A stretch of 64,000 nucleotides of DNA from an uncultured Chloroflexia bacterium (GCA_963735455.1 CAVTKZ010000004.1:371238-435237), one strand, 5' to 3'; shown: positions 41,848-62,096, counted from the first letter of the stretch. The notes: generated from the sequence alone by a model not told the origin. Made by a program: numbers and translations.

Positions 41848-44532
41848 ATGGCCCCCGAGCTGCCGGTTGGCACGGTCACCTTCCTGTTCAGCGACGTCGA
41901 GGGCTCGACCCGTCTCGCCCAGGCGCTGGGCACTGATCGCTGGCGGACGACGCTGGAGGCCCAGCAGGCCATCTGGCGGTCGGTCTTCGCGGCGAACGGC
42001 GGGACCGAGATCTCGACCGAGGGCGACAGCTTCTTCGCGGTCTTCCCGAGCGCGGTCGACGCGGTCGCGGCCGCGGCCGCCGCGCAGCGAGCCATCCGAG
42101 CCGCCACCTGGCCCCCGGAAGCCGGGTCGGCGGGCATCCGCGTCCGGGTTGGCCTGCACACCGGCGAGGGCCGGCTCGGCGGCGACAGCTACGTCGGCCT
42201 CGACGTCCATCGGGCGGCCCGGATCGGCGCGGCCGCCAACGGCGGCCAGATCCTCATCTCGGCCACGACCCGTGCGCTAACCGAGTCGAGCCTGCCCGCC
42301 GGCCTCAGTCTCCTCGACCTTGGACGGCACCGGCTCAAGGACCTCGACCAGCCCGAGGCACTCGGTCGCCTGGTCATCGCCGGCCTCGACGACGATCCGC
42401 GACCGCCCCGAAGCCTCGAGACGCCAACCAACCTGCCGGCCAGCCTGACCAGCTTCATCGGCCGGAAGCGCGAGGTGGGCGAAGTCGTGGAGCTGGTCCG
42501 CACGGTGCGCCTGGTGACCCTGACCGGGCCGGGCGGCACGGGCAAGACCCGCTTGTCGCTGGCGTCCGCCGCCGAGCTCCTGGGTGATTTCCCGGACGGG
42601 GTCTACTTCGTCCGTCTTGCCCCGCTCAGCGATCCGGACCTGCTGGCCGCGACGATCGTCGGCGCAATCGGGCTGGAGCAGTCCCCGACGGCCGATGCCG
42701 TCAGCCTTCTGCGCGGCCACCTGGCCGACCGGCGGGTGCTCCTCGTCCTCGACAACTTCGAGCAGATCGTCGCGGCGGCGCCACTCGTCGGCGAGCTGCT
42801 GACAGCGTCAGAGGGACTCCATGTCCTCGTGACGAGCCGGGAGACCCTCCACCTCCACGGGGAGCAGGAGCTGCCGATCCCCCCGCTCGGACTGCCCGGC
42901 CCGGGCGATGGACCGCTCGACCCGGCCGAGCTCGTCAAATCCGAGGCGATCGCGCTCTTCGTCGCCCGAGCCCGGGCGGTCGTGCCGGCCTTCGTACTCG
43001 ACCGAAGCAACGCCTCCGCGATCGTGGCGATCTGCACCAGTCTGGACGGCCTGCCCCTCGCCATCGAGCTCGCGGCCGCGCGGGTGAAGGTCCTCTCGCC
43101 GGAGGCGATCCGGGACCGCCTGCGATCGAGCCTGGGCTTGCTCGCGAGCGCCGAGCGGGACGTGCCCGAACGCCAGCGCACGTTGCGCGGCGCGATTGCC
43201 TGGAGCTACGACCTGCTAACGGCAGCGGAGCAGGCGGTCTTCCGGCGCGCGGCGATCTTTGTCGGCGGTTGGTCACTCGAAGCGGCCGAGGCCGTGTGTG
43301 CCGTGAGCGGAGATCTCGAACCGGAGGTCTTCGACGTCCTGGCCTCGCTCGCCGACAAGAGCCTCGTCCGATCCGAGCCGGGTGCGGACGACGAGCCGCG
43401 CTTCCGGTACCTGGCCACGATCCGCGAGTTCGGGCTCGAGCTTCTGAAAGCCTCCGGAGAACGCGACGACCTTGCCCGCCGCCATGCGACCTACTTCGCT
43501 GGGCTGGCCGAGCGGATGGTCAAGCCGCTTGCTGGGCCAGATGTCGTGCGCTGGGTCAGCCGCCTCGAGGCCGACCACGCCAATCTGCGCGCCGCGGTCC
43601 ACTGGTCGGTCGAGGCCGGCGAGCCCGGGCTCGGGCTCCGGATCATGGGTCTGGCCTGGCGCTTCTGGTACCAGGGCAGCCATCTCAGCGAGGGCCGGGC
43701 TGCGATCGAGGAGCTGCTCCGCCAGCCGGTCACCGCCGCGTCGGATCGGGACCGGGCTGTCGGATTGAATGGGGCCGGGGGAATCGTCTACTGGCTCGGC
43801 GACTTCGACGCGGCGGCGAAGTTCTGGAGCGAGGCCCTCGCTATCAACGAGGCCCTGGCTGAGTCGTCAGGCACCGCCGAAGCCCACTACAACCTTGGCT
43901 TCATCTCGATGATCCAGGGCGACTTCCCGACCCAGCGGGCGCACCATGCGAAGGCGCTCGCGTTGTACCAGGAGATGGGCGACGAAGCTGGCGTGATCGA
44001 CACCCAGGAGGCTCTCGTCCCGGCCCTCCTGCGGGCCGGCGAGCTGACGGCCGGTGAGGAGCTCCTCCGATCGACCGTGGCCGCCCAACGCGCGCGCGGT
44101 CATCTCGTGCGCCTCGGCGAGGACCTCAGCCTGCTGGCGACGTTCCAGGCCCTCGCCGGCCACCTGGATTCGGCGCGCGCCTCGATCCGCGAGGCCCTTC
44201 CGCTGGCGGAGAGCAGCGGGACGTTGACCAGCGCGGCCTCGGCCTTGGCCAGCGCGGCGCTGATCGAGGCCGAAGGCGGCCATGCCGAGCGGACGGCCAC
44301 GATCGCCGGAGCCCTCGACGCCATGACCGAGGCCTCGCGCGTGGCGATCGCCCAGGTCGACATGCTCCGGATGCCGACCGCCGCCGACGAGGCGCGTTCA
44401 CGGCTCGATCCCGAGGCGTTCGAGCGGGCCTATCGCGTGGGTCGCACCATGGACCGCGACGCGATCCTGGCCTTCGCCCGGGCCGGCCTGGCCGAATCCG
44501 AACCCGGCGCTACGGCGCCTCGCGACGCCTGA
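41848..44532 (+). CDS. class III adenylate/guanylate cyclase domain - AAA/STAND ATPase - TPR protein (894 aa)
   Basis: 'VTFLFSDVEGSTRL', 'EGDSFFAVF' and 'RVGLHTGEG' (cyclase). Walker A 'LTGPGGTGKTRL'. C-terminal TPR-like helical repeats. No C-terminal HTH seen. Confidence 0.8.
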   Translation: MAPELPVGTVTFLFSDVEGSTRLAQALGTDRWRTTLEAQQAIWRSVFAANGGTEISTEGDSFFAVFPSAVDAVAAAAAAQRAIRAATWPPEAGSAGIRVRVGLHTGEGRLGGDSYVGLDVHRAARIGAAANGGQILISATTRALTESSLPAGLSLLDLGRHRLKDLDQPEALGRLVIAGLDDDPRPPRSLETPTNLPASLTSFIGRKREVGEVVELVRTVRLVTLTGPGGTGKTRLSLASAAELLGDFPDGVYFVRLAPLSDPDLLAATIVGAIGLEQSPTADAVSLLRGHLADRRVLLVLDNFEQIVAAAPLVGELLTASEGLHVLVTSRETLHLHGEQELPIPPLGLPGPGDGPLDPAELVKSEAIALFVARARAVVPAFVLDRSNASAIVAICTSLDGLPLAIELAAARVKVLSPEAIRDRLRSSLGLLASAERDVPERQRTLRGAIAWSYDLLTAAEQAVFRRAAIFVGGWSLEAAEAVCAVSGDLEPEVFDVLASLADKSLVRSEPGADDEPRFRYLATIREFGLELLKASGERDDLARRHATYFAGLAERMVKPLAGPDVVRWVSRLEADHANLRAAVHWSVEAGEPGLGLRIMGLAWRFWYQGSHLSEGRAAIEELLRQPVTAASDRDRAVGLNGAGGIVYWLGDFDAAAKFWSEALAINEALAESSGTAEAHYNLGFISMIQGDFPTQRAHHAKALALYQEMGDEAGVIDTQEALVPALLRAGELTAGEELLRSTVAAQRARGHLVRLGEDLSLLATFQALAGHLDSARASIREALPLAESSGTLTSAASALASAALIEAEGGHAERTATIAGALDAMTEASRVAIAQVDMLRMPTAADEARSRLDPEAFERAYRVGRTMDRDAILAFARAGLAESEPGATAPRDA

Positions 44533-45484
44533 TCTCGGCGCTGATCGCGGGGACGACCGTGTGCAGGTCGCCGATCACGGCGTAGGCCGCCCGGGACATG
44601 ATCGGCGCCTCGCGATCCGTGTTGATCACGAGGATCGCCTTGGCAGCCTTGCAGCCGACGATGTGCTGGATCGCGCCGCTGATCCCGCAGGCGATGTAGA
44701 TGTCGGGCGCGATTCGGGTCCCGGTCTGGCCGACCTGCTGGCTGTGCGGCCGCCAGCCGGCACTGGTCACGACCCGCGACACGCCGACGGCGCCGTGGAG
44801 GAGGCCGGCCAGCTCCTCGAGCTCGCTGAACGCCTCGGCCCCGCCCACGCCGCGGCCGCCACCGACCACGACCCGGGCGTCGGCCAGGGAGACCTTGCCC
44901 GCCTCGGGCGCCACCCGGGCCACGACCCGCACCCGGAGATCCGAATCCGTCAGGGTCGGCGTGAACGCTTCAATCCTGACCAGGGACGGGGCGGCCGCCT
45001 CCTCGGGCGGCGTGGCGTGCTCGGCAATCGTGACGAAGCGGACCGGGCCATCGAGCCGGGCATCCTCAAGCAGGCTGCCGCCCCAGCGCTGGCGGGTCAC
45101 CTCGAACAGGGCCCCGGGCCGCAGCTCGACGCAGTTGGCGGCCATCGGCGCCCCGGCCATCGTGGCCGCGTAGGCCAGGACCTCCTGGCCGCGGTCGTTC
45201 CCCGCGGCGAGGACGATCGCCGGCGACGAGACCGACGCGACCTGGGCCACGGCCCGTCCCCAGGCGGCCGGCGCATAGCCGTCGAGGCCGGCCGGCTCGA
45301 CGACCCAGGCCGAGCTCACCCCGAACGCGCCAAGGGCCGCCGCTGCCTGGGCCGCGCCCGGCCCGAAGAGGACGGCGCCCAGCGGGACCCCCAGCGACGC
45401 GGCGGTCCGCCGCGCGAAGGTGAGGGCCTCGAGGGACGAGCGGTCCGGCCGGCCGCCATCCTGCTCGACGAAGGCCAGGATCAT
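44510..45484 (-). CDS. etfA: electron transfer flavoprotein alpha subunit
   Basis: 'YIACGISGAIQHIVGCKAAKAILVINTDREAPI' is the FAD-binding ETF-alpha signature. Confidence 0.9.
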   Translation of the reverse strand: MILAFVEQDGGRPDRSSLEALTFARRTAASLGVPLGAVLFGPGAAQAAAALGAFGVSSAWVVEPAGLDGYAPAAWGRAVAQVASVSSPAIVLAAGNDRGQEVLAYAATMAGAPMAANCVELRPGALFEVTRQRWGGSLLEDARLDGPVRFVTIAEHATPPEEAAAPSLVRIEAFTPTLTDSDLRVRVVARVAPEAGKVSLADARVVVGGGRGVGGAEAFSELEELAGLLHGAVGVSRVVTSAGWRPHSQQVGQTGTRIAPDIYIACGISGAIQHIVGCKAAKAILVINTDREAPIMSRAAYAVIGDLHTVVPAISAEIRRREAP

Positions 45485-46281
45485 CCGGCCAGGACCCCGA
45501 TCCGGACGAGGACATCGACCACCGCGGGCGCGGCGTCGGCGCCGCTGCCCAGGATCTCGACCCGGCCCTCGGTCTCGGCCGGCAGGCGCAGGCGGATCTT
45601 GTCGGGTCCGGTGATCCCGGCGGCGGCCGGCCCGGTCCCGCCCGTCGGCGGCGCGAGGACCGTGGTCTCGATCTCCTTCTTCTTCGCTCGCAGGCGGCCG
45701 GGGACCGACGGATAGCGGGGCAGGTTGATCCCCTCGCGGACCGCGACCACGGCGGGCAGGGACACCTCAAAGACCTCCCAGCCGCCGGCGGCCTCGCGCC
45801 GGGCGGTTGCCACGCCGTCCTTGATGTCGAGCGACTTGACCCCGCTGACGCATGGCAGGCCGAGCGCCAGGGCGACCCGGATCCCGACCTGGAAGTCGCC
45901 CGAATCCGCGGCCTCGTTGCCGAACAGGAGCAGGTCGTAGCTGCTGCCGGCCGCGGCCTCGGCCCGGATCGCCTCGACGATCGCGGCGGCGGTGGAGACC
46001 GGATCCCAGTCCTGGCCGTCGGTCTGGAGCAGGATCGCCCGGTCGATCCCGATCGCCAGCGCCGCCCGGAGCTGGTCGGCCGCGGACTCGGGCCCGAGGG
46101 TCAGGACGGTCGAGCTGCCGCCGTTCGCCTCGATCAGGCGGACGGCCTCTTCGGTCGCGCACTCCTCGTGGGGACTGACCGTGAACCCAAGGTAGCGGGT
46201 GTCGATCTCCCGGGCATCGGCGGTCAGGGTCACCCGCCCGCCGGTCTCGGGGACCCGCTTGACGGCGACCAGGATGTTCAC
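45481..46281 (-). CDS. etfB: electron transfer flavoprotein beta subunit
   Basis: 'MNILVAVKRVPE..', 'SPHEECATEEAVRL' and 'DLLLFGNEAADSGDFQVG'. 4-bp overlaps with both neighbouring genes. Confidence 0.9.
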   Translation of the reverse strand: MNILVAVKRVPETGGRVTLTADAREIDTRYLGFTVSPHEECATEEAVRLIEANGGSSTVLTLGPESAADQLRAALAIGIDRAILLQTDGQDWDPVSTAAAIVEAIRAEAAAGSSYDLLLFGNEAADSGDFQVGIRVALALGLPCVSGVKSLDIKDGVATARREAAGGWEVFEVSLPAVVAVREGINLPRYPSVPGRLRAKKKEIETTVLAPPTGGTGPAAAGITGPDKIRLRLPAETEGRVEILGSGADAAPAVVDVLVRIGVLAG

Positions 46282-48794
46282 GCCCGGATCCGCGAGTTCT
46301 CCGGGTCGAAGATCGGCGTGCTGCCGACAACCGCGACCGTCACCGGGTAGCGCTCGCCGAAATACTCGACGGCCAGCTTCGTGCCCTCGACGGCGGCCTC
46401 GGGCGGCAGGTAGGCGAGCAGGAGGTGCTTGCCGATCGAGGGCGCGGAGCCGGCGCTCGTCGCGTACGCGCGGCGGCCCTTCGCATCGACCAGGAAGGTG
46501 CCGTCGGGCCGGGTGACCGGCTCACGCCCGAGCATGTAGCGCTTGACCCCGCTCGACGAGGTCGGATCATCGACGGTCAGGGTGCACAGGATCGCGGCCG
46601 GCGGGACGGCCCGCTGGGCGAGGTAGGCGGCCTTGCCCACGAAGTCGGCGTCCTTGACCGTCGGCCGGGCCATGCCCGCCTCGACCAGGTTGAAGTCGAG
46701 CTCGAGCTCGTTGCCGTGGGCCCGGTAGCCCTTCTCGAGCCGGCCGGTCGTGGCGTAGACGCCGATCCCGACCGCGACCACGCCCAGTGGCTGGCCGGCC
46801 GCCCAGAGGGTGTCCCACAGCCGGAGGCCCTGCTCCATCGGGGCGTAGATCTCCCAGCCCAGCTCGCCGACATACGAGATCCGGGACATCAGGGTCCGGA
46901 CTCCGCCGATGTCAACGGTCTGGGCCGTGCCGAACGGGAAGGCGGCATTCGAGAGGTCGGCGCTGGTCACCGACTGGACCAGCTCGCGGGCCCTCGGGCC
47001 CCACACGCCGATCGTGTACAGGGCCGAGGTCAGGTCGTGGACCTGGACTGAGCCATCACTTGGCAGGTGGTCGGTGAACCACTTCTTGTCGCGCATGCCC
47101 ATCCCGCCGCCGGTCACCACCCGGTAGTGGTTGGGGCCGAGCCGGATGATCGTCAGGTCGGCGACGATCCCGCCGGCTGCGTTGAGCAGGGGCGTGTAGA
47201 TCACCCGGCCGAGCTTGAGGTCGACCTGGTTGACGACCAGGCCCTGGAGGTAGTCGGTGGCGCCCGGCCCATCGACGTCGAAGATCGCAAAGGCCGCCAG
47301 GTCGACCATTCCCACCCGATCGCGCAGCGCGAGGTGCTCGGCGTTGACGATCGGCGACCACCAGCGCGATTCCCACTCGGCCGCGCGGGGCATCACCCGC
47401 TCGCCGTACTCGGCCAGCAGCGCTTCGTTGGCGCCGTACCAGAACGGCCGCTCCCAGCCGGCGGCTTCGAAGAAGACCGCCCCCAGCTCGCGCTGGCGGA
47501 TGTTGATCGGGCTCAGTCGGACGTCCCGATTGGAGCTCCATTGCTCCATCGGGTGGACGATCCCGTAGGTCTTGTTGAAGCCCTCGGCGCTCCGGGCGTC
47601 GATATGGGCGGCGACCCGCTGGTGGTCATAGAAGCGGGCGACGTCGGACGAGTGCGGGTCGATCTCGGGCGCGCCGTGGGTCATCCACTCGGCGACCGCC
47701 TTGGCGATCCCCGGCGCCTCCTTGATCCAGACCGCGGCCACCGACCACAGGCCGCGGACCTCGGCGGTCTCACCCAGGATCGGCATCCCGTCGGGGGTCA
47801 GCGACAGGAGGCCGTTGATCGCATAGCGGACGCCGACCCGCTCGTCGCGCAGGACCTCGGGCACCAGCTCGAGGGCCTGCTCCATCTGCAGGTCGAAGTC
47901 GTCATCGGTGAAGGGCAGCTCGCTGGGTGACTGGGCGGACTCGGCGATCGAGGGGATCTCGTCGGGCGACATCAGGATCGGCCGGTGGGCGTAGGAGCCG
48001 ACCTCCAGGTCGCCGCCGTGCTGGCGCTCGTACATGTTGGTGTCCATGTCGCGCACGATCGGGAAGGTGATCTCGCCGACGGTCTCGGCAAAGCCGGGTA
48101 CCGGGCCGACGCTGATCATCTGGTGGACGGCCGGGCTGAGGGGGATCGAGGCGCCCGCCATCCGGGCGATCCGGGGGCTCCAGATCCCGCAGGCGATCAC
48201 CACGGTCTCGGCCGCGACGTTGCCCTTGTCCGTCCGCACGCCGCTGACGTGGCCGTCGACGACGTCGATCCCGGTGACCTCGGTCTGGGCCGAAATCGTG
48301 AGCGCACCCAGCTCGACGGCCGCCTCGCGCATCAGGGTCCCGGCCCGGAGCGAGTCGACCACCCCGACCCCGGGGGTGTAGAAGCCGCCCAGCAGGATCG
48401 ACTCCTCGATGTACGGCACGAGCTCCTTGATTCGAGCCGGGCTGATCAGCTCGGATTCGATGCCCCACGAGTGGGCGGAGGCGAGCCGGCGCTTGAACTC
48501 CTCCATCCGCTCCGGGGTCCGGGCGACCTCGATCCCGCCGCTCTGGGTGAAGACTCCGAGCTCCTTGTACTGGCGCACGCTGTCCAAGGTGAACGCCGTC
48601 ATCTCCTTGGAGTGGTCGGTCAGGAAGATGAAGTTCGACGCATGACCGGTCGATCCGCCGGGGTTGGGGAGGGTCCCCTTGTCGATCAGGACGATGTCCC
48701 GCCAGCCGAGCCGGGCCAGGTGGTAGGCCATGCTGTTGCCGACGATTCCGGCGCCGATCACGACGACCCTGGCCCGCTCAGGCAGTCCGCTCAT
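46278..48794 (-). CDS. FAD-dependent oxidoreductase fused to a GcvT-like folate-binding aminomethyltransferase domain (dimethylglycine/sarcosine dehydrogenase family)
   Basis: 'VVVIGAGIVGNSMAYHLARLGW' N-terminus, 838-aa length and a C-terminal GcvT-type region ('ISYVGELGWEIY'). Lies in an operon with etfBA. Confidence 0.85.
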   Translation of the reverse strand: MSGLPERARVVVIGAGIVGNSMAYHLARLGWRDIVLIDKGTLPNPGGSTGHASNFIFLTDHSKEMTAFTLDSVRQYKELGVFTQSGGIEVARTPERMEEFKRRLASAHSWGIESELISPARIKELVPYIEESILLGGFYTPGVGVVDSLRAGTLMREAAVELGALTISAQTEVTGIDVVDGHVSGVRTDKGNVAAETVVIACGIWSPRIARMAGASIPLSPAVHQMISVGPVPGFAETVGEITFPIVRDMDTNMYERQHGGDLEVGSYAHRPILMSPDEIPSIAESAQSPSELPFTDDDFDLQMEQALELVPEVLRDERVGVRYAINGLLSLTPDGMPILGETAEVRGLWSVAAVWIKEAPGIAKAVAEWMTHGAPEIDPHSSDVARFYDHQRVAAHIDARSAEGFNKTYGIVHPMEQWSSNRDVRLSPINIRQRELGAVFFEAAGWERPFWYGANEALLAEYGERVMPRAAEWESRWWSPIVNAEHLALRDRVGMVDLAAFAIFDVDGPGATDYLQGLVVNQVDLKLGRVIYTPLLNAAGGIVADLTIIRLGPNHYRVVTGGGMGMRDKKWFTDHLPSDGSVQVHDLTSALYTIGVWGPRARELVQSVTSADLSNAAFPFGTAQTVDIGGVRTLMSRISYVGELGWEIYAPMEQGLRLWDTLWAAGQPLGVVAVGIGVYATTGRLEKGYRAHGNELELDFNLVEAGMARPTVKDADFVGKAAYLAQRAVPPAAILCTLTVDDPTSSSGVKRYMLGREPVTRPDGTFLVDAKGRRAYATSAGSAPSIGKHLLLAYLPPEAAVEGTKLAVEYFGERYPVTVAVVGSTPIFDPENSRIRA

Positions 48795-49020: not shown

Positions 49021-49038
49021 CTCTCAGGGAGTTCTCAG
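49021..49038 (+). promoter_or_regulatory. direct-repeat box CTCTCAGGGAGTTCTCAG (TCTCAG-N5-TCTCAG, 11-bp phasing) in the -35 position of the response-regulator operon promoter
   Basis: 10 nt upstream of a TACAAC -10-like hexamer (49049-49054). Near-identical boxes with identical spacing occur at 51167-51184 and 62159-62176 (minus strand). Confidence 0.55.
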
Positions 49039-49107
49039 AATGGGGGCGTACAACGGACTGTGGGATTGCCGTGATGTGCGCGGCTCCCGGGATCGAATGG
49101 GCGGGCG

Positions 49108-49785
49108 ATGCACCTTCTCGTCGTCGAAGATGACCAGCGCCTGCGCCGCCTCCTCAAGCGGCTGCTCGAGGAGGACCAGCACGTGGTCGAGGTCGCGGCC
49201 GATGGCGCGACGGCGGTCGAGCTGGCGACTGGATCGACCGGGATCGATGCCCTGATCCTGGATGTCGGCCTGCCCGACGTCAGCGGCCTGGAGGTCGCTC
49301 GCCGGATCCGGGCGGCCGGGGCCGATGTCTCGATCCTGATGCTCACCGCCCGGGACACGGTCGGCGACCGGGTCGGCGGCCTGGACGCGGGGGCCGACGA
49401 CTACCTGGTCAAGCCGTTCGCCTTCGAGGAGCTGTCGGCCCGCCTGCGGGCCCTGTCGCGACGGGGAGCCGCCGGTACCCGGCGGGCCGAGCCGAAGCTG
49501 GTCGCCGGCTTGATCGAGCTCGACGAGACGGCTCGCCGGGTGACCGTCGGCGGCGATCCGGTCGACCTCAGCCCGCGCGAGTTCTCGCTCCTCGAGTGCC
49601 TCCTGCGGCACGCCGGCCAGACCCTCAGCCGGGACCAGCTCCTCGACCAGGCCTGGCCATTCAGCGTGGCGGTCACCCCCAACGCGGTCGATGCCTACGT
49701 CCACTACCTGCGCACGAAGCTGGGCTCGGCGAGCCGCCAGCTGGAGACGGTCCGGGGAATCGGCTATCGCCTCGCCCATGACTGA
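49108..49785 (+). CDS. OmpR/PhoB-family response regulator
   Basis: 'LLVVEDD', 'DALILDVGLPDVSG', 'LTARD' and 'DDYLVKPF' receiver motifs, plus the winged-helix 'VRGIGYRL'. Confidence 0.9.
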   Translation: MHLLVVEDDQRLRRLLKRLLEEDQHVVEVAADGATAVELATGSTGIDALILDVGLPDVSGLEVARRIRAAGADVSILMLTARDTVGDRVGGLDAGADDYLVKPFAFEELSARLRALSRRGAAGTRRAEPKLVAGLIELDETARRVTVGGDPVDLSPREFSLLECLLRHAGQTLSRDQLLDQAWPFSVAVTPNAVDAYVHYLRTKLGSASRQLETVRGIGYRLAHD

Positions 49786-51145
49786 GCAACCCACCTCGGA
49801 GCGGATCACGGGCAGCGAGGACTGGGTGGACCAGCAAGCCCGCAAGGGCGACGCCCGCCTTGTCCGGGGCGTCCGCTGGCGGCTCGTCCTGTTCAGCGGC
49901 GGGACGACCCTGTTGATCCTGCTGGCCCTCGGCGCCCTCCTCTACGTCCGCGTCGCCAGCTCGCTCGAGACGACCGGAGTGACCCAGCTCGATGCCCGGG
50001 CAGCATCGCTCAAGCAATTCCTGGGTGGCAGCGATGACCCGGGCAAGGGCCCGCCGACCGGCCTGATCTTCGGTGGCGGATCGTCGGGCACGTTCGCCGT
50101 CCTGGTGACCGCCGCCGGCCAGCGGATCGGCGACCTCGATGACGGCGTGCCGGGCGGCCTGCCCAACGTGGCCTCCGTGGCCGCAGCCTGGCAGACCGGT
50201 CGCGACGTCCGGGACGCGGTGCTGGCGGACGTCCCGGTCCGGATCCTGAGCGTGACCGCCTCGAGCCGGATCGGGCCGGTCGTGATCCAGGTGGTCCAGG
50301 ACCGGACCGATGAGCAGAAGACGCTGGACGTGATCTCCGACGTGCTGATCTTCGGCGGACTGCTGGCCGTTGCGGCAGCCAGCGCCTTCGGGGCGGTCTA
50401 TGCCCGGCGCGCCCTGGCCCCGATCCGGTCGTCGCTCGCCAGCCAGCGCCTGGCACTCCGTCGCCAGCGCGAGTTTGCCGCCGACGCGAGCCATGAGCTG
50501 CGGACGCCCTTGACCGTGATCCGGAGCTCGGTCGAGTACCTGGGCCGGCATCGGACCGAGCCGGTCGGGGCGGTCGGCGAGGCGCTCGAGGACATCACCG
50601 CCGAGGTCGACCAGCTGTCGACCCTGGTCGAGGACCTGCTCCTGCTGGCCCGCTCCGATTCGGGCGCGATCGAGCTCGACCAACTGCCGCTCGACCTGGG
50701 CGACCTGGCGGGCGAAGCGGCCTCGACGCTGGCCCAGCCGGCCGCCGACCGGAAGGTCCGGATCGTGGTCGATCCCGAGCCGGCCGCGGTGACCGGCGAC
50801 CCGGTCCGGCTCCGCCAGCTGGTGGCGATCCTGGTCGACAACGCGATCCGGCACAGCCCGGCCGGGGGCGAGGTCCGGGTCGCGGTCAGGAGCGATGGCC
50901 GGTCGACCGAACTGTCGGTCGAGGACCAGGGCCCGGGCATCCGGCCGGAAGACCTGCCCCGGGTCTTCGACCGGTTCTGGCGGGCGCCCGGCGCTCCGGC
51001 CGGCGGGACCGGCCTGGGCCTGGCGATCGCCCACTGGATCGTCGAGCGCCACGGCGGCCAGATCGTGGTGGTCAACCGGGCCGAGGGCGGGGCGCGCTTC
51101 GACGTCCGGCTGCCGGTCCGCGACGCGTCGCCGGCCCGAGGCTGA
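49778..51145 (+). CDS. sensor histidine kinase (two TM segments, HAMP, HisKA, HATPase_c)
   Basis: ATG overlaps the regulator stop (ATGACTGA). H-box 'FAADASHELRTPLT', N-box 'LVDNAIRHSP' and G-boxes 'DQGPGI' / 'GTGLGLAI'. Confidence 0.85.
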   Translation: MTEQPTSERITGSEDWVDQQARKGDARLVRGVRWRLVLFSGGTTLLILLALGALLYVRVASSLETTGVTQLDARAASLKQFLGGSDDPGKGPPTGLIFGGGSSGTFAVLVTAAGQRIGDLDDGVPGGLPNVASVAAAWQTGRDVRDAVLADVPVRILSVTASSRIGPVVIQVVQDRTDEQKTLDVISDVLIFGGLLAVAAASAFGAVYARRALAPIRSSLASQRLALRRQREFAADASHELRTPLTVIRSSVEYLGRHRTEPVGAVGEALEDITAEVDQLSTLVEDLLLLARSDSGAIELDQLPLDLGDLAGEAASTLAQPAADRKVRIVVDPEPAAVTGDPVRLRQLVAILVDNAIRHSPAGGEVRVAVRSDGRSTELSVEDQGPGIRPEDLPRVFDRFWRAPGAPAGGTGLGLAIAHWIVERHGGQIVVVNRAEGGARFDVRLPVRDASPARG

Positions 51146-51166: not shown

Positions 51167-51184
51167 CTCTCAGGCAGTTCTCAG
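51167..51184 (+). promoter_or_regulatory. direct-repeat box CTCTCAGGCAGTTCTCAG upstream of the ferric-reductase/FMN-bind/ApbE operon
   Basis: 17/18 identical to the 49021 box. Lies 10 nt upstream of CAGGCT (51195-51200), which is 7 nt from the ATG at 51208. Confidence 0.55.
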
Positions 51185-51207
51185 CCGCCTTCCCCAGGCT
51201 GGGGCCG

Positions 51208-52581
51208 ATGACCACGATGACCAGTAGCCGGCGCGCCGTCCCGCTGCCGCGGGGCTGGACCCTGCGCACCCGCGAGATCGTGGCCGTCCTGATCGGCAAC
51301 GGCCTGCTGATCGGGGCGATGTGGCTGCGTCACGGTGGGCTGGACCTGCTCGACTCGCCCAGTGGCTGGTTCATTGCCGGGGGCGAGCTGACCGCCCTGC
51401 TGGGCGGCTACCTGGCCCTGATCCAGCTCGTCCTGATGTCGCGCAGCCCGTGGCTCGAGCAGGTCGTGGGCCAGGACGCCCTGACCGCCGCCCATCGCTG
51501 GGTCGGCTTCACCTGTGTCTGGCTGATCGTCGGCCACGTCGTCCTGACCACGCTCGGCTTCGCCCTGGCCGATGGCTCGAACGTGATCGTCGAGCTGTGG
51601 ACCCTCCTGACGACCTACCAGTTCATGCTGATGGCCGGTGCCTCGCTGGTCCTGTTCGTGGTCGTCGCGGTCAGCTCGGTCCGACTCGCCCGGCGGCACC
51701 TGTCGTACGAGACCTGGCACGGGATCCATCTCTACGCCTACCTGGCGATCGCCCTGGGCCTCGGCCACCAGCTGGTGACCGGCACCGACTTCGCTCACGA
51801 CCCGATCGCCTGGGCCTACTGGCTGGCCCTGTACCTGGTTGCGGGCTCGGCGATCCTCGTCTTCCGCTTCATCCAGCCGCTGGCCCAGTCCCTGCGCCAC
51901 CGCTTCCGGGTGGTCAACGTCGAGCGCGAGGGGCCGGGCGTGATCTCGATCTACCTCGGCGGGCGCGACCTGGATCGCTTCGCGATCCGGGCGGGCCAGT
52001 TCGTGATCGTCCGCTTCCTGCGCCGGGATGGCTGGTGGCGGGGTCATCCCTTCTCGATCTCGGCCGCGCCCAATGGGCGTTGGATCCGGCTGACCGTCAA
52101 GGACCTGGGCGATGACACGACCTCGATGGCCGCCCTGCCGGTCGGGACCCGGGTCTACCTCGAAGGCCCGTACGGCTTGCTGACCGGCGCCCGGCGCAAG
52201 CACCGCCGGGTCCTGCTGATCGCCGGCGGGATCGGGATCGCCCCGCTCCGGGCGCTGTTCGAGGAGCTGCCTGCCGATCCGGGCGACCTGACCCTGCTGT
52301 ACCGGGCGAGCCGGCCCAGGGACATCGTCTTCCGCGAGGAGCTCGACCACCTGGCTCGCGCCCGGGGCGCGATCGTCCATTACCTGATCGGCGCGCGGGG
52401 CTCCCGGGCGATGCCCGCCGACCCGCTCGCTCCGCCCGCGCTACGCAAGCTGGTGCCCGACGTCCGCGAGCGGGAGGTCTACCTGTGCGGGCCCACGGCG
52501 ATGATGGAGGCGGTCCGCGATGGCCTCCAGGCCCTGGGCATCCCGCGACGCCAGATCCACTTCGAACGCTTCGAGTTCTGA
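51208..52581 (+). CDS. ferric-reductase-like transmembrane protein fused to an FAD/NAD(P)-binding ferredoxin-reductase-type domain (NOX-like)
   Basis: Six TM helices with conserved His pairs. 'GQFVIVRF..HPFSIS' FAD-binding and 'LLIAGGIGIAP' NAD-binding motifs. Confidence 0.8.
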   Translation: MTTMTSSRRAVPLPRGWTLRTREIVAVLIGNGLLIGAMWLRHGGLDLLDSPSGWFIAGGELTALLGGYLALIQLVLMSRSPWLEQVVGQDALTAAHRWVGFTCVWLIVGHVVLTTLGFALADGSNVIVELWTLLTTYQFMLMAGASLVLFVVVAVSSVRLARRHLSYETWHGIHLYAYLAIALGLGHQLVTGTDFAHDPIAWAYWLALYLVAGSAILVFRFIQPLAQSLRHRFRVVNVEREGPGVISIYLGGRDLDRFAIRAGQFVIVRFLRRDGWWRGHPFSISAAPNGRWIRLTVKDLGDDTTSMAALPVGTRVYLEGPYGLLTGARRKHRRVLLIAGGIGIAPLRALFEELPADPGDLTLLYRASRPRDIVFREELDHLARARGAIVHYLIGARGSRAMPADPLAPPALRKLVPDVREREVYLCGPTAMMEAVRDGLQALGIPRRQIHFERFEF

Positions 52582-52589
52582 GGCCGACC

Positions 52590-53111
52590 ATGCCCAAACG
52601 TGCCGTTGCCGCCATCGTCATCACGGCGATCGCCCTCGCCCTGCTGTTCAGCTTCAAGACGCCCGCGGAGAACGGCTCGGCTCTCGGCGCCCCGGCCCTG
52701 GCCTCCCTGGCACCGCAGGCCTCGACTGATCCGGGCTCACTCGGCGGCACGTCGGTCGGCGACAGCCCCGCCCCGGTCGCGATCGGCTCGAGCGCCCCCG
52801 GAGCGACGCCGGCGCCGACCACGGCCGCGACCAAGGGCAATGGCACGTTCACCGGGTCGGCCGTCGAGAATCCGTTCGGCGAGGTGCAGGTCCAGATCAC
52901 CCTGACCGGCGGCAAGATCACCGCCGTGACGGCCCTCCAGATGCCCAGCCACGGCCGATCGGGCTTCATCTCCCAGGACGTCGCCCCGATCCTGCAGGGC
53001 GAGGCCCTGGCGGCGCAGAACGCGAAGATCGACACGGTCTCGGGTGCCACCTACACCAGCGATGCCTATGCCCAGTCGCTCCAGAGCGCGCTCGACCAGG
53101 CCCATGGTTGA
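52590..53111 (+). CDS. extracytoplasmic FMN-binding domain protein
   Basis: N-terminal signal/anchor. The C-terminal FMN_bind domain carries the flavinylation motif 'DTVSGATYTS'. Confidence 0.75.
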   Translation: MPKRAVAAIVITAIALALLFSFKTPAENGSALGAPALASLAPQASTDPGSLGGTSVGDSPAPVAIGSSAPGATPAPTTAATKGNGTFTGSAVENPFGEVQVQITLTGGKITAVTALQMPSHGRSGFISQDVAPILQGEALAAQNAKIDTVSGATYTSDAYAQSLQSALDQAHG

Positions 53112-53922
53112 GGCCCCCGCCCGGCGCCGGCCGACGATCGTGGCCACGATGGGCACGGTGATCGGGCTCGACCTGCGCGATCCGGATCTGCCCCAGGCCG
53201 CGGTCGACGACGCCCTGGCCTGGTTGACCGATGTCGATGCGCGCTTCAGCCCGTACCGTCCGGGCAGCCAGGTCAGCCGCCTGGCCCGGGCCGAGATCGA
53301 GCTCGAGGACTGCCCGCCGGACGTCCGTTTCGTGCTCACTCGCTGCGAGGCCCTGCGCTTGGAGAGCGACGGCTACTTCGACGTTCGCGGGCCGGGTCTG
53401 CTGGGTGGCCTCGATCCGTCGGGCTACGTCAAGGGCTGGGCCGTCGAGGAGGCCGCCTTCATCCTGGAGGCGGCCGGTGCCCGCAACTACGCCCTGAACG
53501 CCGGCGGCGACGTGATCCTGCGTGGCGTGCCCGAGGCCGGCCGGCCCTGGATCGTGGGCATCCGCCATCCGCTCGAGGCCGACCAGGTCGCGGCCCGGCT
53601 GGCCTTCGGGTCCCAGCCGACGGGCGGCCGGCAGGCCCTGGCCACCTCCGGCCTGTACGAACGCGCCGGGCACATCGTCAACCCCCGCACGGGGAAGGTC
53701 CCGGACGAGCTCCTGAGCATGACCGTCGTCGGTCCGAGCCTGGCCCTGGCCGATGCCTACGCAACGGCGGCCTTCGCGATGGGCCGGGCCGGGCTGGGCT
53801 GGTTGGCGAGCCGCCCGGGCTACGCTGGCTACGCCATCGATCGTGACCTGCGACCCAGCTGGAACGCCGGCCTTGAGCCATTCCTGGCGGCGGCTGGGGG
53901 CGAGCCTGGACCTGCCGGCTGA
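53104..53922 (+). CDS. apbE: FAD:protein FMN transferase (ApbE family)
   Basis: 'TMGT', 'DPSGYVKGWA', 'NAGGDV', 'ATSG', 'HIVNPRTG' and 'LADAYATA' ApbE motifs. 8-bp overlap with the upstream gene. Confidence 0.85.
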   Translation: MVEAPARRRPTIVATMGTVIGLDLRDPDLPQAAVDDALAWLTDVDARFSPYRPGSQVSRLARAEIELEDCPPDVRFVLTRCEALRLESDGYFDVRGPGLLGGLDPSGYVKGWAVEEAAFILEAAGARNYALNAGGDVILRGVPEAGRPWIVGIRHPLEADQVAARLAFGSQPTGGRQALATSGLYERAGHIVNPRTGKVPDELLSMTVVGPSLALADAYATAAFAMGRAGLGWLASRPGYAGYAIDRDLRPSWNAGLEPFLAAAGGEPGPAG

Positions 53923-53925: not shown

Positions 53926-54459
53926 TCAGGCGTGGTGCTTGTAGCGCCGCCGCCGGGCCCGGATCCGGACGCCGTTGCCGTCGGTGGGCACGATGCTGAC
54001 CGAGCCGTCCGCTTCGAGGACAGCCAGCTTCATCTCCTTGATCGAGTCGAGCCCGTGCTCGCGCAGCGCCGCGCCCAGGTCGTCCGGGTCGAGGCCCTGG
54101 GAATCGAGCGCCTCCGTCAGCCAGGCACCGTCCTTGCCGATCACGGTCGGCTCGAACTCGAGCAGGCGGCGGACGAGCGGGACCCGCCGCCGGAGCTGGG
54201 CCACCACGCCGTTCAGGAAGAAGATCGTGACGATGATGATCGCCGCCCCGGGGATCGACTGGTCGGGGCCGGTCATCGCCGGCTGGAGGGCGTTCGCGGC
54301 GAGCAGGACGAGGGCCAGGTCGAACAGGGTGAACTGGCCAACCTCGCGCTTCCCGAAGATCCGCAGGGCGGCCAGGAAGATCAGGTAGACGATCGCGGTC
54401 CGGGCGACGATCTCGAGAGGCGGGAGGCCGAGCTGCCACATCGCCGGATCGTCGCACAT
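53926..54459 (-). CDS. DUF421 (YetF-like) membrane protein
   Basis: 'RTAIVYLIFLAALRIFGKREVGQFTLFDLALVLLAANA' DUF421 N-terminus. ATG at 54459 or 54441. The rest of ORF 53926..56691 is an antisense artefact. Confidence 0.7.
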   Translation of the reverse strand: MCDDPAMWQLGLPPLEIVARTAIVYLIFLAALRIFGKREVGQFTLFDLALVLLAANALQPAMTGPDQSIPGAAIIIVTIFFLNGVVAQLRRRVPLVRRLLEFEPTVIGKDGAWLTEALDSQGLDPDDLGAALREHGLDSIKEMKLAVLEADGSVSIVPTDGNGVRIRARRRRYKHHA

Positions 54460-54480
54460 CCCGGCCTGTACCCTGCGCCC

Positions 54481-55875
54481 ATGTTGATGCCGTTGCCCCG
54501 GTCCGAGGCTGCCCGCCCGCCGACCGTCGAGCGGCGCCGAGTGCGCGAGCTCAAGGACCGCGAGGACGCCCGGTTCGCCGCTGAGCATCCCCGCTCCCTG
54601 GCCCTCCTCGAGCGCGGCCGACGGGTGATGCCCAACGGGGTGCCGATGGCCTGGCACGTGAGCAGCTACCACCACCCGCCGATGTGGGCGGTCGAAGGCC
54701 GTGGCGCCCGCTTCACCGACGTCGACGGCCACACCTACAGCGACTTCAACATCGCCGACCTGTCGATGTTCTGCGGCTACGCCCCGGAGCCGCTCGTGCG
54801 GGTGGTCACCGCCCGGATCGCGAGCGGCCACCAGTTCCTGCTGCCGGTCGAGGATGCGATCGTCGTATCCGAGGAGCTCGGCCGGCGCTTCGGACTGCCG
54901 AAGTGGCAGTACACCCTGTCCGCCAGCCAGGCCAACACCGAGGCGATCCGGGTGGCCCGGGTGGCGACCGGCCGGGACAAGGTCCTGATGTTCGAGGGCA
55001 AGTACCTCGGCCACCTGGCCGAGGCGCTGGTCGAGATCGATCCGGATGGCCGGCTGGTGCCCGAAGAGCGCGGCGTGGCCGCCGACGTCGTGGCGGGCAC
55101 GGTCCTCGTTCCGCTCAACGACCTGGTGGCACTGGCCGCGGCCCTCGATCGGCGGGACATCGCCGTCGTCCTGGCCGAGCCGGCCTTGACCAACAACTTC
55201 GGGCTGATCCTGCCCGACCCGGGCTTCCACGCCGAGCTGCGCCGGCTGACCCGCGAGGCGGGCACGCTGCTGGCCATCGACGAGACCCACACCCAGGTGG
55301 TGGGGGCCGGCGGCCTGACCGCGGCCTGGGGCCTGGCCCCCGACCTGATCACCTGCGGCAAGTCGATCGCCGGCGGCGTCCCGTTCGGGGCGTGGGGGAT
55401 GACCGACGAGATCGCCGCTGTCCTGGCCCAGGCCAAGGGCGTCGACGGCGAGCGATCGAACCTGGTCGCGATCGGCGGCACCCTCTTCGGCAATGCCCTG
55501 TCGCTGGCCGCCGCCCGGGCCACGATGCTCGAGATCCTGACACCCGACGCCTATGCCAGCACCCAGCGCCTGGGCGGTCGCCTGGCCGACGGGATGCGGG
55601 CGGCCGTCGCCCGGGCCGGCCTGCCCTGGCACATCTACCGGCTTGGGCCGCGCGCGGGCTACACCTTCCAGCCCGAGCCGCTGCGCAACGCCGCCGAGGC
55701 GCGCGCCTGCCAGGACGACCTGCTTACCCGCCTGATCCGGATCTGGCTCGCCAACCGGGGCGTCTGGGAGGCGATCGTGGGCGCCGGTCCGGTGGCCTCG
55801 GTGCCCGCGACCGACGAGGACGTCGACGCCTACCTCCTCGCCTGGGGCGAGCTCCTCGACGCCCTGACCGCCTGA
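54481..55875 (+). CDS. class III aminotransferase (glutamate-1-semialdehyde aminomutase-like)
   Basis: ATG at 54481 lies 6 nt after TACCCT. 'LSASQANTEAIRVAR', 'DETHT' and 'CGKSIAGGVPFGA' (PLP Lys). Confidence 0.8.
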   Translation: MLMPLPRSEAARPPTVERRRVRELKDREDARFAAEHPRSLALLERGRRVMPNGVPMAWHVSSYHHPPMWAVEGRGARFTDVDGHTYSDFNIADLSMFCGYAPEPLVRVVTARIASGHQFLLPVEDAIVVSEELGRRFGLPKWQYTLSASQANTEAIRVARVATGRDKVLMFEGKYLGHLAEALVEIDPDGRLVPEERGVAADVVAGTVLVPLNDLVALAAALDRRDIAVVLAEPALTNNFGLILPDPGFHAELRRLTREAGTLLAIDETHTQVVGAGGLTAAWGLAPDLITCGKSIAGGVPFGAWGMTDEIAAVLAQAKGVDGERSNLVAIGGTLFGNALSLAAARATMLEILTPDAYASTQRLGGRLADGMRAAVARAGLPWHIYRLGPRAGYTFQPEPLRNAAEARACQDDLLTRLIRIWLANRGVWEAIVGAGPVASVPATDEDVDAYLLAWGELLDALTA

Positions 55876-55878
55876 ACC

Positions 55879-56865
55879 TTGGAAGGAGGCAGCGCCCTGC
55901 CTGCGAAGCTCCCGCATTCGTTCCGGATCGAGCCCCGCGGGCCGTTCTCGTGGCCGCTGGCCCTCGACGTCCTGGGCCACTTCGGGCCAACCGGCCGTCA
56001 TGTGCCGGGGGATGGGCCAGCCGTCGCGGCAGGATCGATCCTGAGGCTCGCGTTCCCGCTCGACGGCACCTTCGAGCCGGTGGCCGTCGCGCTCCGCTTC
56101 GAGGCAGGGGCGCTCCACGGCGAGGTCGCCGGAACGGAGCGCATCGAAGCCGTGGCCGCGCAGGTCGCCCGAATCTTCTCGCTCGACGTCGACGGCTCGG
56201 GCTATCCAGACCTTGCCCGGCGCGATCCTGCCCTGGGCCGGGTGATGGCGGCGCTGCCCGGGCTGCGGCCGGTCTGCTTCACCTCGCCCTACGAGACGGC
56301 GGCCTGGGCGATCCTGAGCGCACGGATCTCGATGGCCCAGGCGGCCCGGGTCCAGGACCGCCTGATCCACGAGCTCGGGACGCGGCTGCGATTGGCCGGC
56401 GAGGACGCCTGGAGCTTCCCGAGACCCGAGCGCCTCCTGGAGCTGGGCGAGCTGCCCGGTGCGGCGCCGGAGAAGGTCGTCCGGCTCCATGGCGTCGCCC
56501 GGGCGGCGCTGGAGGGGATCCTCGATGCCGAGCGGCTCCGGGAGCTGGGCGACGAAGCCGGACCGGCTTCGCTGCTCGGAATCCGGGGGATCGGGCCGTT
56601 CTGGTCGTCGGGGATCTACCTGCGCGGCTGCGGGATCACCGACGTCTTTCCCGACGAGCCGCTGTCGATCGCGGCGCTCGGCCAGCTCCATGGGCTGGGA
56701 GATCGGCCCGAGCAGGGCGACGTCGCTCGGCTCACGGCGGCCTACGCGCCGTACCGGATGTGGGCCTGCTTCCTGTTACGAGTCGCGGCGGGGCGGGGGA
56801 TCCCCGGCCTGGCCGGCCGGGAGATGGCGATCCGCCGGGGGGCCCGGGGCACGGGCCGGGACTAG
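55879..56865 (+). CDS. HhH-GPD superfamily DNA glycosylase (AlkA-like)
   Basis: '[15 protein letters not shown]' and '[21 protein letters not shown]' form a helix-hairpin-helix/GPD region. The TTG start is uncertain. Confidence 0.6.
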
Positions 56866-58270: not shown

Positions 58271-59203
58271 TCAACCGACGGCGGCAATCCTCGGGATCGT
58301 CGATCCCGCCAGGCGCTCTTCAAAGCGCCGGGCCGTCGCCTCCAACTTGTCGAGATGCTCCGCCAGTCGGCGGCGGGCCTCCTCTGCCGCTTCGCTCAGG
58401 TTCGTCAGGTCGAAGATCCGCCAATGGCGGAGGATCGGCATCAGGACCTCGTCGCGGTGGACCCGGACATCGTAAATCCCCGCCCGGGCCATTTGGGCCG
58501 CCTTGCGCACAAATTGGGGAATACCGGCGCCGGGCATCCGGAACGAGAGGACCTCGTCAACGATCGCGCAGACCGCGGCCGAGGGCTCCAGGACCAGGGC
58601 GGCCGACATGATGTCGCGGTAGAAGACCATGTGCAGGTTCTCGTCGGCCGCGATCCGGATCATGATCCGGTCGGCCACCGGGTCGTCCGAGTAGCGTCCG
58701 GTGTTGCGGTGCGAGATCCGGGTGGCCAGCTCCTGGAAGGCCACGTAGGCCAGGCCGTGGAGGGTGTCCGGCGAGGCCAGGTCGTAGCCCTTCTCGAGCT
58801 GGGTCATCCGGCCGCGCTCGAGCAGGATCGGGTCGATGTTGCGGGTCACCATCAGGTAGTCGCGCAGGACGATCGCGTGACGACCCTCCTCGGCGGTCCA
58901 GCGGCCGACCCAGTTGATCCAGGCGCCATCGCCGTTGCCGAACATGCCGTGGATCAGGCGGTGGTACGAGGGCAGGTTGTCCTCGGTCAGCAGGTTGATC
59001 TCGAAGGCCGTCTGGGCCACGCCGGTCAGGCGCGGCTGGTCCGGCGTCCAGGGCTCCTTGTCGAAGTCCCGGCCGAGCCGGTAGGGAATGAAGTCGTGAG
59101 GGAACCACTCCTGCGCAACCTTGAGATGGCGGTCATACAGGCGCCCCGCCTCGGGCTCGAGCTCGATCAGCAGACCGCGCTCGTTGTAGTCATCGGGGGA
59201 CAT
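58271..59203 (-). CDS. acyl-ACP desaturase (soluble di-iron, DesA-like)
   Basis: 'TAEEGRHA' and 'DENLHMVFYRD' di-iron EXXH motifs. ATG at 59203. Confidence 0.85.
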   Translation of the reverse strand: MSPDDYNERGLLIELEPEAGRLYDRHLKVAQEWFPHDFIPYRLGRDFDKEPWTPDQPRLTGVAQTAFEINLLTEDNLPSYHRLIHGMFGNGDGAWINWVGRWTAEEGRHAIVLRDYLMVTRNIDPILLERGRMTQLEKGYDLASPDTLHGLAYVAFQELATRISHRNTGRYSDDPVADRIMIRIAADENLHMVFYRDIMSAALVLEPSAAVCAIVDEVLSFRMPGAGIPQFVRKAAQMARAGIYDVRVHRDEVLMPILRHWRIFDLTNLSEAAEEARRRLAEHLDKLEATARRFEERLAGSTIPRIAAVG

Positions 59204-59363
59204 CAGGTCACCGATCCGGGCGGGACGGGAGGCAGGCGAAGGCCGCGAGCCGAACGATCCGCCCAGCAAGGGTAGTCGTCCGCGAGGGTTCGTCCCCGGA
59301 ACGGATGCGGACCTGCATCGACCACGAACAGGCGCGATTGCGATCGGAGATCATCAACGGGCG

Positions 59364-61124: not shown

Positions 61125-62096
61125 CTAGTTCGTGGTGGCCTGGCCGGCCTCGGCCTTGGTCAGGAGGGCCGCCGCGATGTTGATCGGGACGGCGAAGCCG
61201 ATCCCCTCGGCGCTCGAGTCGGTGGCGGTGTTGATCCCGATCACCTGGCCCGCCGCGTTGAGGAGCGGTCCGCCGCTGTTGCCCTCGTTGATCGCGGCGT
61301 CGGTCTGGATCAGCCCGGTCAGATGGACCGGCCGCCCGGTGGCCTCGTCCTGGACGTCGATCTGGCGCCCGGTGCCGCTCACGATGCCGGTCGTGACCGT
61401 TCCCGCGAAGGTCCCCAGCGGATCGCCGATGGCGACCGCCAGCTGGCCGATCTGGAGGTTGTCGGAGTTGCCCAGGGTGACCGTCGGCAAGCCGGTCGCC
61501 GCGATCTTGACCACGGCCACGTCGTGGGTCGGATCGGTCCCGACGACGGTGCCGTCGAACTGGCGGCCGTCGGACAGCTGGACGGTCAGCGTGCCGCTGC
61601 TGGCGATCACGTGGCGGTTGGTCAGGATGTAGCCGTCGGCCGTCACGATCATCCCCGAGCCGATCGAGGTGCCCGAGCTGCGGCCGAAGCCGCCGCTGCC
61701 GGCATCGGTGATCGTGACCACGGCCGGGCTGGCCAGCGCGGCAATCTGGACGATCGGCTGGTTGGCCGAGCCGCTGCTGGTGGGGGCGCTGGTGCTGGTG
61801 CTGGTCAGCTTGGCCGGGGCGCTGGTCGCGGCCGGCGCGGCGGCCGGCAGGGTAAGCTCGATGACCCCGAATGTCCCGCTCGCGGCGAGGACCGCGGCCA
61901 GGACGGCGGTCAGGACGATCGCCCCGCGACCGACGCCGCCGCCGCTCGGCGGGCGAGCCGGCGGCGTGACCGGCGGGAGGGGGGCCACCGGCGGTGGTGC
62001 CTCGTAGGCCGACTCGTCGTAGGTGATCGGCTGGGCCGGGGCGGTGGGGTAGTCGTAGGGGCTGTTGGTGGGGCCTGGGTCGGTTGGCTGGGTCAT
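61125..62096 (-). CDS. membrane-anchored trypsin-like serine protease (S1C/HtrA-like, no PDZ domain)
   Basis: ATG at 62096. Pro-rich N-terminus and a TM helix. Catalytic 'LTNRHV', 'HDVAVVKI' and '[15 protein letters not shown]'. Confidence 0.85.

Follow-up and report, generated by a model that had tools for sequence, protein, structure and literature searches.

A TCTCAG direct-repeat box as the probable operator of an OmpR-family regulator with an MsrQ-like module and an HtrA-like protease among its predicted targets in a Chloroflexota genome

What does an 18-bp direct repeat do when it stands upstream of three different genes, each time in the position of a -35 element? The question is raised by a stretch of 64,000 nt from an uncultured Chloroflexia bacterium (GCA_963735455.1 CAVTKZ010000004.1:371238-435237), which was analysed as a whole and is called the window below. 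The three copies of the box lie upstream of an operon for an OmpR/PhoB-family response regulator and a sensor histidine kinase, a gene for a ferric-reductase-like membrane protein (FRD) and a gene for an HtrA-family serine protease. A preliminary description of the window had read the box as a replacement of the -35 element and as the operator of the adjacent regulator, autoregulation included. Our answer goes in the same direction: the box is most probably the operator through which the regulator, phosphorylated by the kinase, activates its own operon, an MsrQ-like module and an HtrA-like protease.

The boxes and the -10-like hexamers that follow them are located as given here.

49021-49038, plus strand: box 1, CTCTCAGGGAGTTCTCAG, an exact pattern match with two TCTCAG half-sites 11 bp apart
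51167-51184, plus strand: box 2, CTCTCAGGCAGTTCTCAG, identical to box 1 at 17 of 18 positions, between the kinase stop codon and FRD
62159-62176, minus strand: box 3, ATTTCAGGTGGTTCTCAG, identical to box 1 at 14 of 18 positions, 14 nt past the stop codon of an enoyl-acyl-carrier-protein (ACP) reductase gene
49049-49054, plus strand: -10-like hexamer TACAAC, 10 nt past box 1
51195-51200, plus strand: -10-like hexamer CAGGCT, 10 nt past box 2; the ATG at 51208 follows after 7 nt
62148-62143, minus strand: -10-like hexamer TAGAAC, 10 nt past box 3

The sequence was re-read, and the coordinates and identities in the preliminary description were exact. The same was true of the two hexamers phased 11 bp apart, with half-site starts of the TCTCAG type at this distance in all three boxes, and of the 10-nt gap to each -10-like hexamer. 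In box 3, the 5' half-site reads TTTCAG, and the consensus of the box is T(C/T)TCAG-N5-TCTCAG.

The three boxes are real and non-random. A search of the window with TYTCAGGNNGTTCTCAG at ≤2 mismatches gave three matches, where 0.09 were expected, and none of 100 shuffles gave three. The heptamer TTCTCAG also occurred three times, each time within a box; for the heptamer alone, 3.08 occurrences were expected. With a matrix built from the orthologous sites of other genomes, box 1 scored 26.5, box 2 24.8 and box 3 22.8 bits. All three boxes are intergenic and have the same orientation as the downstream gene (response regulator, ferric-reductase-like and trypsin-like protease, respectively). Their distance from the regulator is at most 13 kb, and there is none in the remaining 48 kb of the window. 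The next-best matrix match (43444-43460, minus strand, 13.5 bits) was considered as a fourth site and rejected; it is antisense within a coding gene for an 894-amino-acid (aa) cyclase/STAND/TPR protein.

Orthologues of the regulator (64-93% identity) were found only in Chloroflexota metagenome-assembled genomes (MAGs) of the class Limnocylindria, so that an actinobacterial origin of the window is rejected. As a footprint set, 68 Limnocylindria loci with a total of 718 kb were searched for TCTCAG-N5-TCTCAG with ≤1 mismatch, and the expectation was taken from dinucleotide shuffles (individual loci are cited by number, e.g. L001). Phylogenetic footprinting had been named in the preliminary description as a check, and its outcome favours the box: 89 boxes were found, compared with 3.25 +/- 2.3 expected. 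There were no boxes in 132 kb around more distant OmpR-family regulator homologues from other lineages. Of the 89 boxes, 85 were co-oriented upstream of eight gene families, and the four without an assigned target are about the number that chance predicts. The targets in the relatives were distributed as follows.

Trypsin/HtrA-like protease: 24 boxes
Regulator: 22 boxes
HlyD-family adaptor: 17 boxes
Ferric-reductase-like gene: 9 boxes
DUF5666/CusF-like protein: 6 boxes
YceI-like protein: 4 boxes
297-aa protein with no Pfam match: 2 boxes
Flavin mononucleotide (FMN)-binding protein: 1 box

The 22 boxes directly upstream of regulator orthologues (L001-L004, L066 and others), together with many more that head regulator-containing operons, support the predicted autoregulation. 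Among the additional target families, only the FMN-binding homologue is present in the window; in L030, this homologue has its own box. The genes for regulator, protease and FRD adjoin in many loci, with shuffled orders and orientations, which points to a functional link and not to inherited synteny. In some loci (L066 at 6001-9449, and also L059, L061 and L075), matches to the regulator and/or FRD were split across frames. This points to frameshifts, which are either assembly errors or pseudogenes.

For the promoter architecture, 88 orthologous sites were aligned on the box; the flanks had played no part in the selection of the sites. Conservation in the flanks was confined to one hexamer at +11 to +16, whose consensus is T-A/T-n-A-A/C-T. 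Its final T was present in 83% of the sites, in DNA with 72% G+C. At the spacing of box 1, TACAAC was found in L001, L002 and L066 and TATAAC in L003. The orthologues of box 2 have CAGACT, CAGAGT, CAGCAT or CACAGT at the same position. No -35-like hexamer was found 16-18 nt upstream of the three hexamers of the window, where the matches to TTGACA were 0-3 of 6. A scan for consensus sigma-70 promoters and terminators at 48.7-52.7 kb also gave no matches; the lack of a consensus promoter there is expected if the promoters have no -35 element. The proposal that the box takes the place of the -35 element is thus backed on both sides, by the conservation of a hexamer exactly 10 nt past the box and by the lack of a -35-like hexamer. 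If the -10 element is numbered -12 to -7, the box extends from about -40 to about -23, which is the geometry of activator-dependent promoters of the PhoB/PhoP type.

The FRD gene of the window starts 23 nt past its box, and its orthologues start 22-25 nt past theirs in L001-L004, L015 and L032. As CAGGCT ends only 7 nt before the ATG, the FRD mRNA is probably leaderless. Several regulator genes also start 22-26 nt past a box (L002-L004, L024, L045, L050 and L056), which likewise fits transcripts with no leader.

A different element was seen upstream of the regulator orthologues. In an unbiased count for 66 of them, TAGGCT was the top 6-mer, with 16 loci compared with 0.22 expected. It stands 6-7 nt before the regulator ATG (about 5985-5995) in L005, L007-L009, L011, L013, L014, L016-L021, L045, L059 and L067. 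TAGGCT looks like the -10 element of a second, box-independent and leaderless regulator promoter. Box promoter and TAGGCT promoter occur together in L011, L019 and L059; the window has no TAGGCT promoter. L059 also has three half-sites at 11-bp phasing upstream of the regulator (5925-5952, TCGCAG-N5-TCTCAG-N5-TCTCAG), which suggests that more than one dimer is bound at some promoters.

The genes behind the boxes were assigned with Pfam.

49108-49785, plus strand: OmpR/PhoB-family response regulator, 225 aa (Response_reg and Trans_reg_C)
49778-51145, plus strand: sensor histidine kinase, 455 aa (HisKA and HATPase_c)
51208-52581, plus strand: FRD, an MsrQ-like/ferric-reductase-like membrane protein, 457 aa (Ferric_reduct, FAD_binding_8 and NAD_binding_1)
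52590-53111, plus strand: membrane-anchored FMN-binding protein with the flavinylation motif DTVSGAT (FMN_bind)
about 53104-53922, plus strand: ApbE flavin transferase (ApbE, 1e-39); the open reading frame (ORF) opens at 53044, and the start is approximate
61125-62096, minus strand: membrane-anchored HtrA-family (S1C) serine protease, 323 aa (Trypsin_2)

Box 1 lies in a divergent intergenic region of 313 nt, 70 nt upstream of the regulator. With a regulator and a kinase identified by Pfam behind it, the first copy indeed precedes a regulator/kinase operon, as previously described. The recognition helix of the regulator is NAVDAYVHYLRTK (residues 192-204), and the start of the kinase overlaps the regulator stop codon (ATGACTGA). 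The kinase has two transmembrane segments around an extracytoplasmic loop of ~135 aa. No NCBIfam equivalog cut-off was reached by regulator or kinase. Box 2 is within the 62-nt gap downstream of the kinase. Box 3 is 62 nt before the protease gene, which is 11 kb distant from the regulator/kinase genes in the window. The protease consists of a proline-rich N-terminus, one transmembrane segment and a trypsin-like domain, with no PDZ domain; the NCBIfam HtrA/DegP models cover its catalytic part only.

The choice of the adjacent regulator as the predicted binder gains support from the relatives, where the box follows the recognition helix. The helix NAVDAY[VI]HYLR was found in 58 loci, and 49 of the 58 have a canonical box, whereas this was the case for 2 of 22 loci with other helices. 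In paralogues, helix and repeat change together. Those with the helix NSVDAYVAFLRR have TTTCAT-N5-TTTCAT, at a distance of 26 nt from the start codon, and in those with the helix NTVEAYIHLLR a protease-regulator operon is headed by GTTCAG-N5-TTTCAG, with TACAAC after a further 10 nt. The altered repeats of the paralogues, which keep the phasing and the 10-nt gap to a -10 element, were located in L054, L057 and L058 (some 26 nt ahead of the regulator ATG at 6001), in L062 (about 5090-5110) and in L063 (about 4775-4790). Judging by these repeats, there is a small family of related operator codes, and cross-talk between them is possible. Distant homologues have other repeats at 11-bp phasing, i.e. 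TGTGAG-N5-TGTGAG in L069 (about 5900-5920) and TTCCAAG-N4-TTCCAAG in L071 (about 5960-5980). As these repeats are unrelated, autoregulation through a direct repeat appears generic, and the half-site appears specific to the subfamily.

A possible course of events can be outlined from these parts. The membrane kinase would sense an extracytoplasmic signal and phosphorylate the regulator. The regulator would then bind the box as a head-to-tail dimer with one subunit per half-site, and this dimer would replace the contact between sigma region 4 and the -35 element and recruit RNA polymerase. Three outputs would result: the regulator/kinase operon would be under positive autoregulation, and both the MsrQ-like NAD(P)H-haem-flavin module, by which electrons would be carried to the outer side of the membrane, and the membrane-anchored HtrA-like protease would be induced. 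We infer here the binding by the regulator, the sign of the regulation (activation, not repression) and the kind of signal. The circuit looks like an envelope-stress response concerned with protein quality and redox state, given the HlyD-type adaptors and the DUF5666/CusF-like and YceI-like targets in the relatives.

Some observations weigh against this reading. The -10 hexamers TACAAC and TAGAAC are without the final T that is usually invariant. The co-occurrence of helix and box (Fisher p = 5e-10) was calculated with the phylogenetic relatedness of the loci ignored. Nine loci with the canonical helix have no box at ≤1 mismatch; several of them are short contigs or have boxes with two mismatches. 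The helix of L069, NAVDLYVHYLRR, nearly matches that of the window, yet its repeat TGTGAG differs, meaning that the helix sequence by itself does not fix the specificity. Finally, MprA of Corynebacterium glutamicum is reported to be mainly a repressor, namely of sigE and sigB (PMC12113857), and hence the sign of the regulation is not to be assumed. As a side observation on L069, essentially one contact position is changed between the two helices, from A to L, and this position is possibly a specificity determinant.

The C. glutamicum precedent leads to the alternative that survives best, although we consider it unlikely: the same regulator on the box as a repressor, which covers the -35 region and blocks RNA polymerase, with negative autoregulation relieved by stress. 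The overlap of the box with the core promoter would suit a repressor, and in Streptomyces, CutR acts as a repressor of htrB, with its site at -17 (PMC12802291). However, with 0-3 of 6 matches there is no -35 hexamer in the window that an unaided polymerase could use, and the fixed gap of 10 nt corresponds to the geometry of PhoB/PhoP promoters, which depend on an activator. Moreover, the box-free TAGGCT promoter would give basal expression of the regulator in many relatives, which fits a pair of a basal and an inducible promoter.

Somewhat less probable again is that another OmpR-family regulator, encoded elsewhere, recognises the box, and that the adjacency is incidental or reflects cross-regulation. 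Paralogous regulators with the related half-sites TTTCAG and TTTCAT do exist in the same MAGs (L006/L054 and L058/L063), and TTTCAG is also the 5' half-site of box 3. However, the type of box follows the helix of the neighbouring regulator in three separate groups. The boxes directly upstream of regulator orthologues and the clustering of the window boxes near the regulator also speak against a regulator from elsewhere.

It is very improbable that the repeat is a recognition element of an alternative sigma factor, e.g. of the extracytoplasmic function (ECF) type, and not an operator. Such an element would explain the fixed distance to a downstream hexamer, and mycobacterial envelope stress also involves SigE. 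However, both halves of the box are direct repeats, conserved to the same degree and phased by 11 bp. For a -35/-10 pair, the gap to the hexamer is too short from the proximal half-site (10 nt) and too long from the distal one (21 nt), and differences in the sequence go along with differences in the regulator helix. That the similarity is due to chance or composition, or is the remnant of a short mobile repeat, can practically be dismissed: the heptamer by itself is at its expected frequency, but the full box is far above expectation in the window and in the relatives, lies strictly between genes and in the direction of the downstream gene, and its flanks are not conserved as those of a mobile element would be. 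The reading of the box as an activating operator of the adjacent regulator is thus retained.

The surroundings of the three boxes contain further genes. Divergent from the regulator is an operon (44510-48794, minus strand) with a fused FAD-oxidoreductase/aminomethyltransferase of 838 aa (DAO, FAO_M and GCV_T), a fusion of the dimethylglycine or sarcosine dehydrogenase type. It is followed by what are probably the two electron-transfer-flavoprotein subunits (44510-45484, assigned by Pfam, and 45481-46281). The 894-aa protein (41848-44532, plus strand) has an adenylate/guanylate cyclase domain, a STAND-type NTPase and TPR repeats. An ORF of 921 aa (53926-56691, minus strand) with a weak DUF421 match was rejected as an antisense artefact of high-GC DNA on the basis of codon-position GC. 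The true genes of this stretch are on the plus strand, i.e. a class-III aminotransferase fusion (53932-55875) and a gene without a Pfam match (55879-56865). At 58271-59269 (minus strand), a soluble acyl-ACP-type fatty-acid desaturase is encoded (FA_desaturase_2, 7e-63). Soluble desaturases of this type are characteristic of plants and Actinobacteria. In combination, the desaturase, the MsrQ-like module and the MprA-type box lend an actinobacterial flavour to this Chloroflexota region.

How does the system compare with known ones? Meheust et al. 2021 (PMC8238504) described a flavinylated extracytosolic electron-transfer system as 'MsrQ-like', and FRD, the FMN-binding protein and ApbE correspond to it. 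In the passages of that paper considered here, the system is defined by a PF01794 membrane protein clustered with an FMN-binding-domain protein and ApbE, which is the arrangement in the window. According to the same passages, MsrQ-like clusters show wide conservation in Actinobacteria and are infrequent elsewhere, and transcriptional control is not mentioned in them. The cluster of the window, in contrast, belongs to Chloroflexota and has a predicted two-component operator.

In Streptomyces CutRS/CssRS and C. glutamicum MprAB, a membrane kinase and an OmpR-family regulator likewise control HtrA-like proteases, under secretion or envelope stress. The CutR motif TAWATAAA and the C. glutamicum MprA motif TKTTAAGAAM were candidates for the nearest known operator, which were rejected because their sequences are unrelated. 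The TCTCAG repeat is therefore not general to the class of systems that control HtrA.

The pho box of Escherichia coli has 18 bp, with two 7-bp direct repeats, a 4-bp spacer and a distance of 10 bp to the -10 element, and there is no -35 element. The PhoB half-site is CTGTCAT, and the regulon answers phosphate starvation. The window promoters have the same architecture as the pho box, but an unrelated half-site. Against the NCBIfam PhoB model, the regulator scored 182 bits, with a cut-off of 296.

The closest solved relatives of the regulator are PhoP of Mycobacterium tuberculosis (E = 1.4e-46) and PrrA. PhoP binds TCACAGC-N4-TCACAGC as a tandem dimer (crystal structure 5ED4), with base contacts by N212, V213, E215, S216, Y217 and Y220 and by R237 of the wing. 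The regulator of the window keeps N212, Y217, Y220 and R237, and has A, D and A in place of V213, E215 and S216. The geometry of 7+4+7 bp is the same, whereas the half-sites TCACAGC and TCTCAGG differ at the third and seventh bases. The three changed contacts would fit a half-site with a different third base. In cryo-electron microscopy of PhoP with RNA polymerase, the promoter-proximal dimer is on sites that overlap the -35 element, and sigma region 4 is displaced. The PhoP box overlaps and functionally replaces the -35 element, as is proposed for the window. Half-site, regulon and signal of PhoP differ from those of the window system.

The most extensive likeness is to mycobacterial MprAB-PepD. 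The MprA box is said to consist, in the description of He & Zahrt, of two direct repeats of 8 bp with 3 nt between them, and the 8+3+8 layout fits the box of the window (TCTCAGGG-AGT-TCTCAGAA). None of the open papers that we found quoted the sequence of the MprA box. A protein database was queried with an M. tuberculosis MprA sequence; there were matches at 99%, and those at 94-96% are named MprA by their source. The mprA-mprB-pepD-moaB2 loci of three mycobacteria (L081-L083) were retrieved, and their promoters were read directly. Exact TCTCAG-N5-TCTCAG, with no mismatches, was present upstream of mprA in all three loci. In L081, the mprA promoter reads TCTCAGGC-CAG-TCTCAGGC, followed after 10 nt by GACACT, and the pepD promoter, in which the TCTCAG-N5-TCTCAG repeat is exact as well, reads TCTCAGTG-GAA-TCTCAGTC, followed after 10 nt by CAACCT. 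The counterpart of the pepD repeat in Mycolicibacterium has one mismatch. These mycobacterial repeats at mprA and pepD are presumably the sites that were footprinted with MprA. A side observation concerns the annotation of L081 (5001-6035, CP130803.1), where the annotated mprA product has 344 aa because a PPE-like segment upstream is fused to it, and the MprA box is inside that ORF. The annotated start of mprA in L081 is almost certainly too far upstream.

Window and mycobacterial mprA/pepD promoters thus have in common the half-site TCTCAG twice, the 11-bp phasing, the layout of 8+3+8 bp and the 10-nt gap to a -10-like hexamer. As in mycobacteria, the box precedes the regulator operon itself and an HtrA-family protease. 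The resemblance to the MprA box and the pepD arrangement in the preliminary description stood up at the level of the operator sequence and of the HtrA-family target.

We tentatively raise the possibility, with some reserve, that a pair of regulator and operator (TCTCAG-N5-TCTCAG at about -40 to -23, with an HtrA-type target) is common to Actinomycetota and Chloroflexota by ancient descent or transfer, and that in Limnocylindria it was extended to the MsrQ-like system, HlyD-type efflux adaptors, YceI and DUF5666. If true, envelope protein-quality control would be coupled to an extracytoplasmic redox supply, and MprA and the Limnocylindria regulator would be interchangeable on each other's boxes. 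On our main reading, the circuit is one of the MprA-box type outside Actinobacteria, with an enlarged and redox-flavoured regulon and a mechanism that is itself conventional.

We know of no cultured model and no regulatory circuits for Limnocylindria, a widespread class of soil and freshwater. For this class, the analysis provides a concrete predicted regulon and operator. The operator is constant letter for letter across phyla, though the proteins have diverged to 45% identity. This helps to carry knowledge of the regulon from M. tuberculosis to environmental MAGs. For the uncharacterised MsrQ-like modules, a regulatory input by a two-component system of the envelope-stress type is suggested, which hints at conditions under which their function may be found.

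The proteins agree with MprAB-PepD to different degrees. The recognition helices of the regulator and MprA are alike (NAVDAYVHYLRTK and NALEVYVGYLRRK), and the 45% identity given above is that between these two proteins. In phmmer, MprA orthologues gave 167-180 bits with the regulator, and PhoP and PrrA gave about 161, so that MprA is the best of those scored, by a small margin. A near-identical relative of the regulator is named only 'OmpR family response regulator' by JGI. The kinase has the same topology as MprB; the catalytic core alone can be aligned, with 38%, and Pfam reports no HAMP domain. The protease and mycobacterial PepD share 39% identity in the catalytic region, a proline-rich N-terminus and a membrane anchor, whereas the window protease is without PDZ. 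The hosts differ (Chloroflexota for the window, Actinobacteria for MprAB), and the predicted regulon goes beyond that of MprAB, with the flavinylated MsrQ-like module and, in the relatives, HlyD adaptors, DUF5666 and YceI. Leaving family membership aside, the system of the window would, to judge from its sequence, work like MprAB-PepD and with the same operator sequence.

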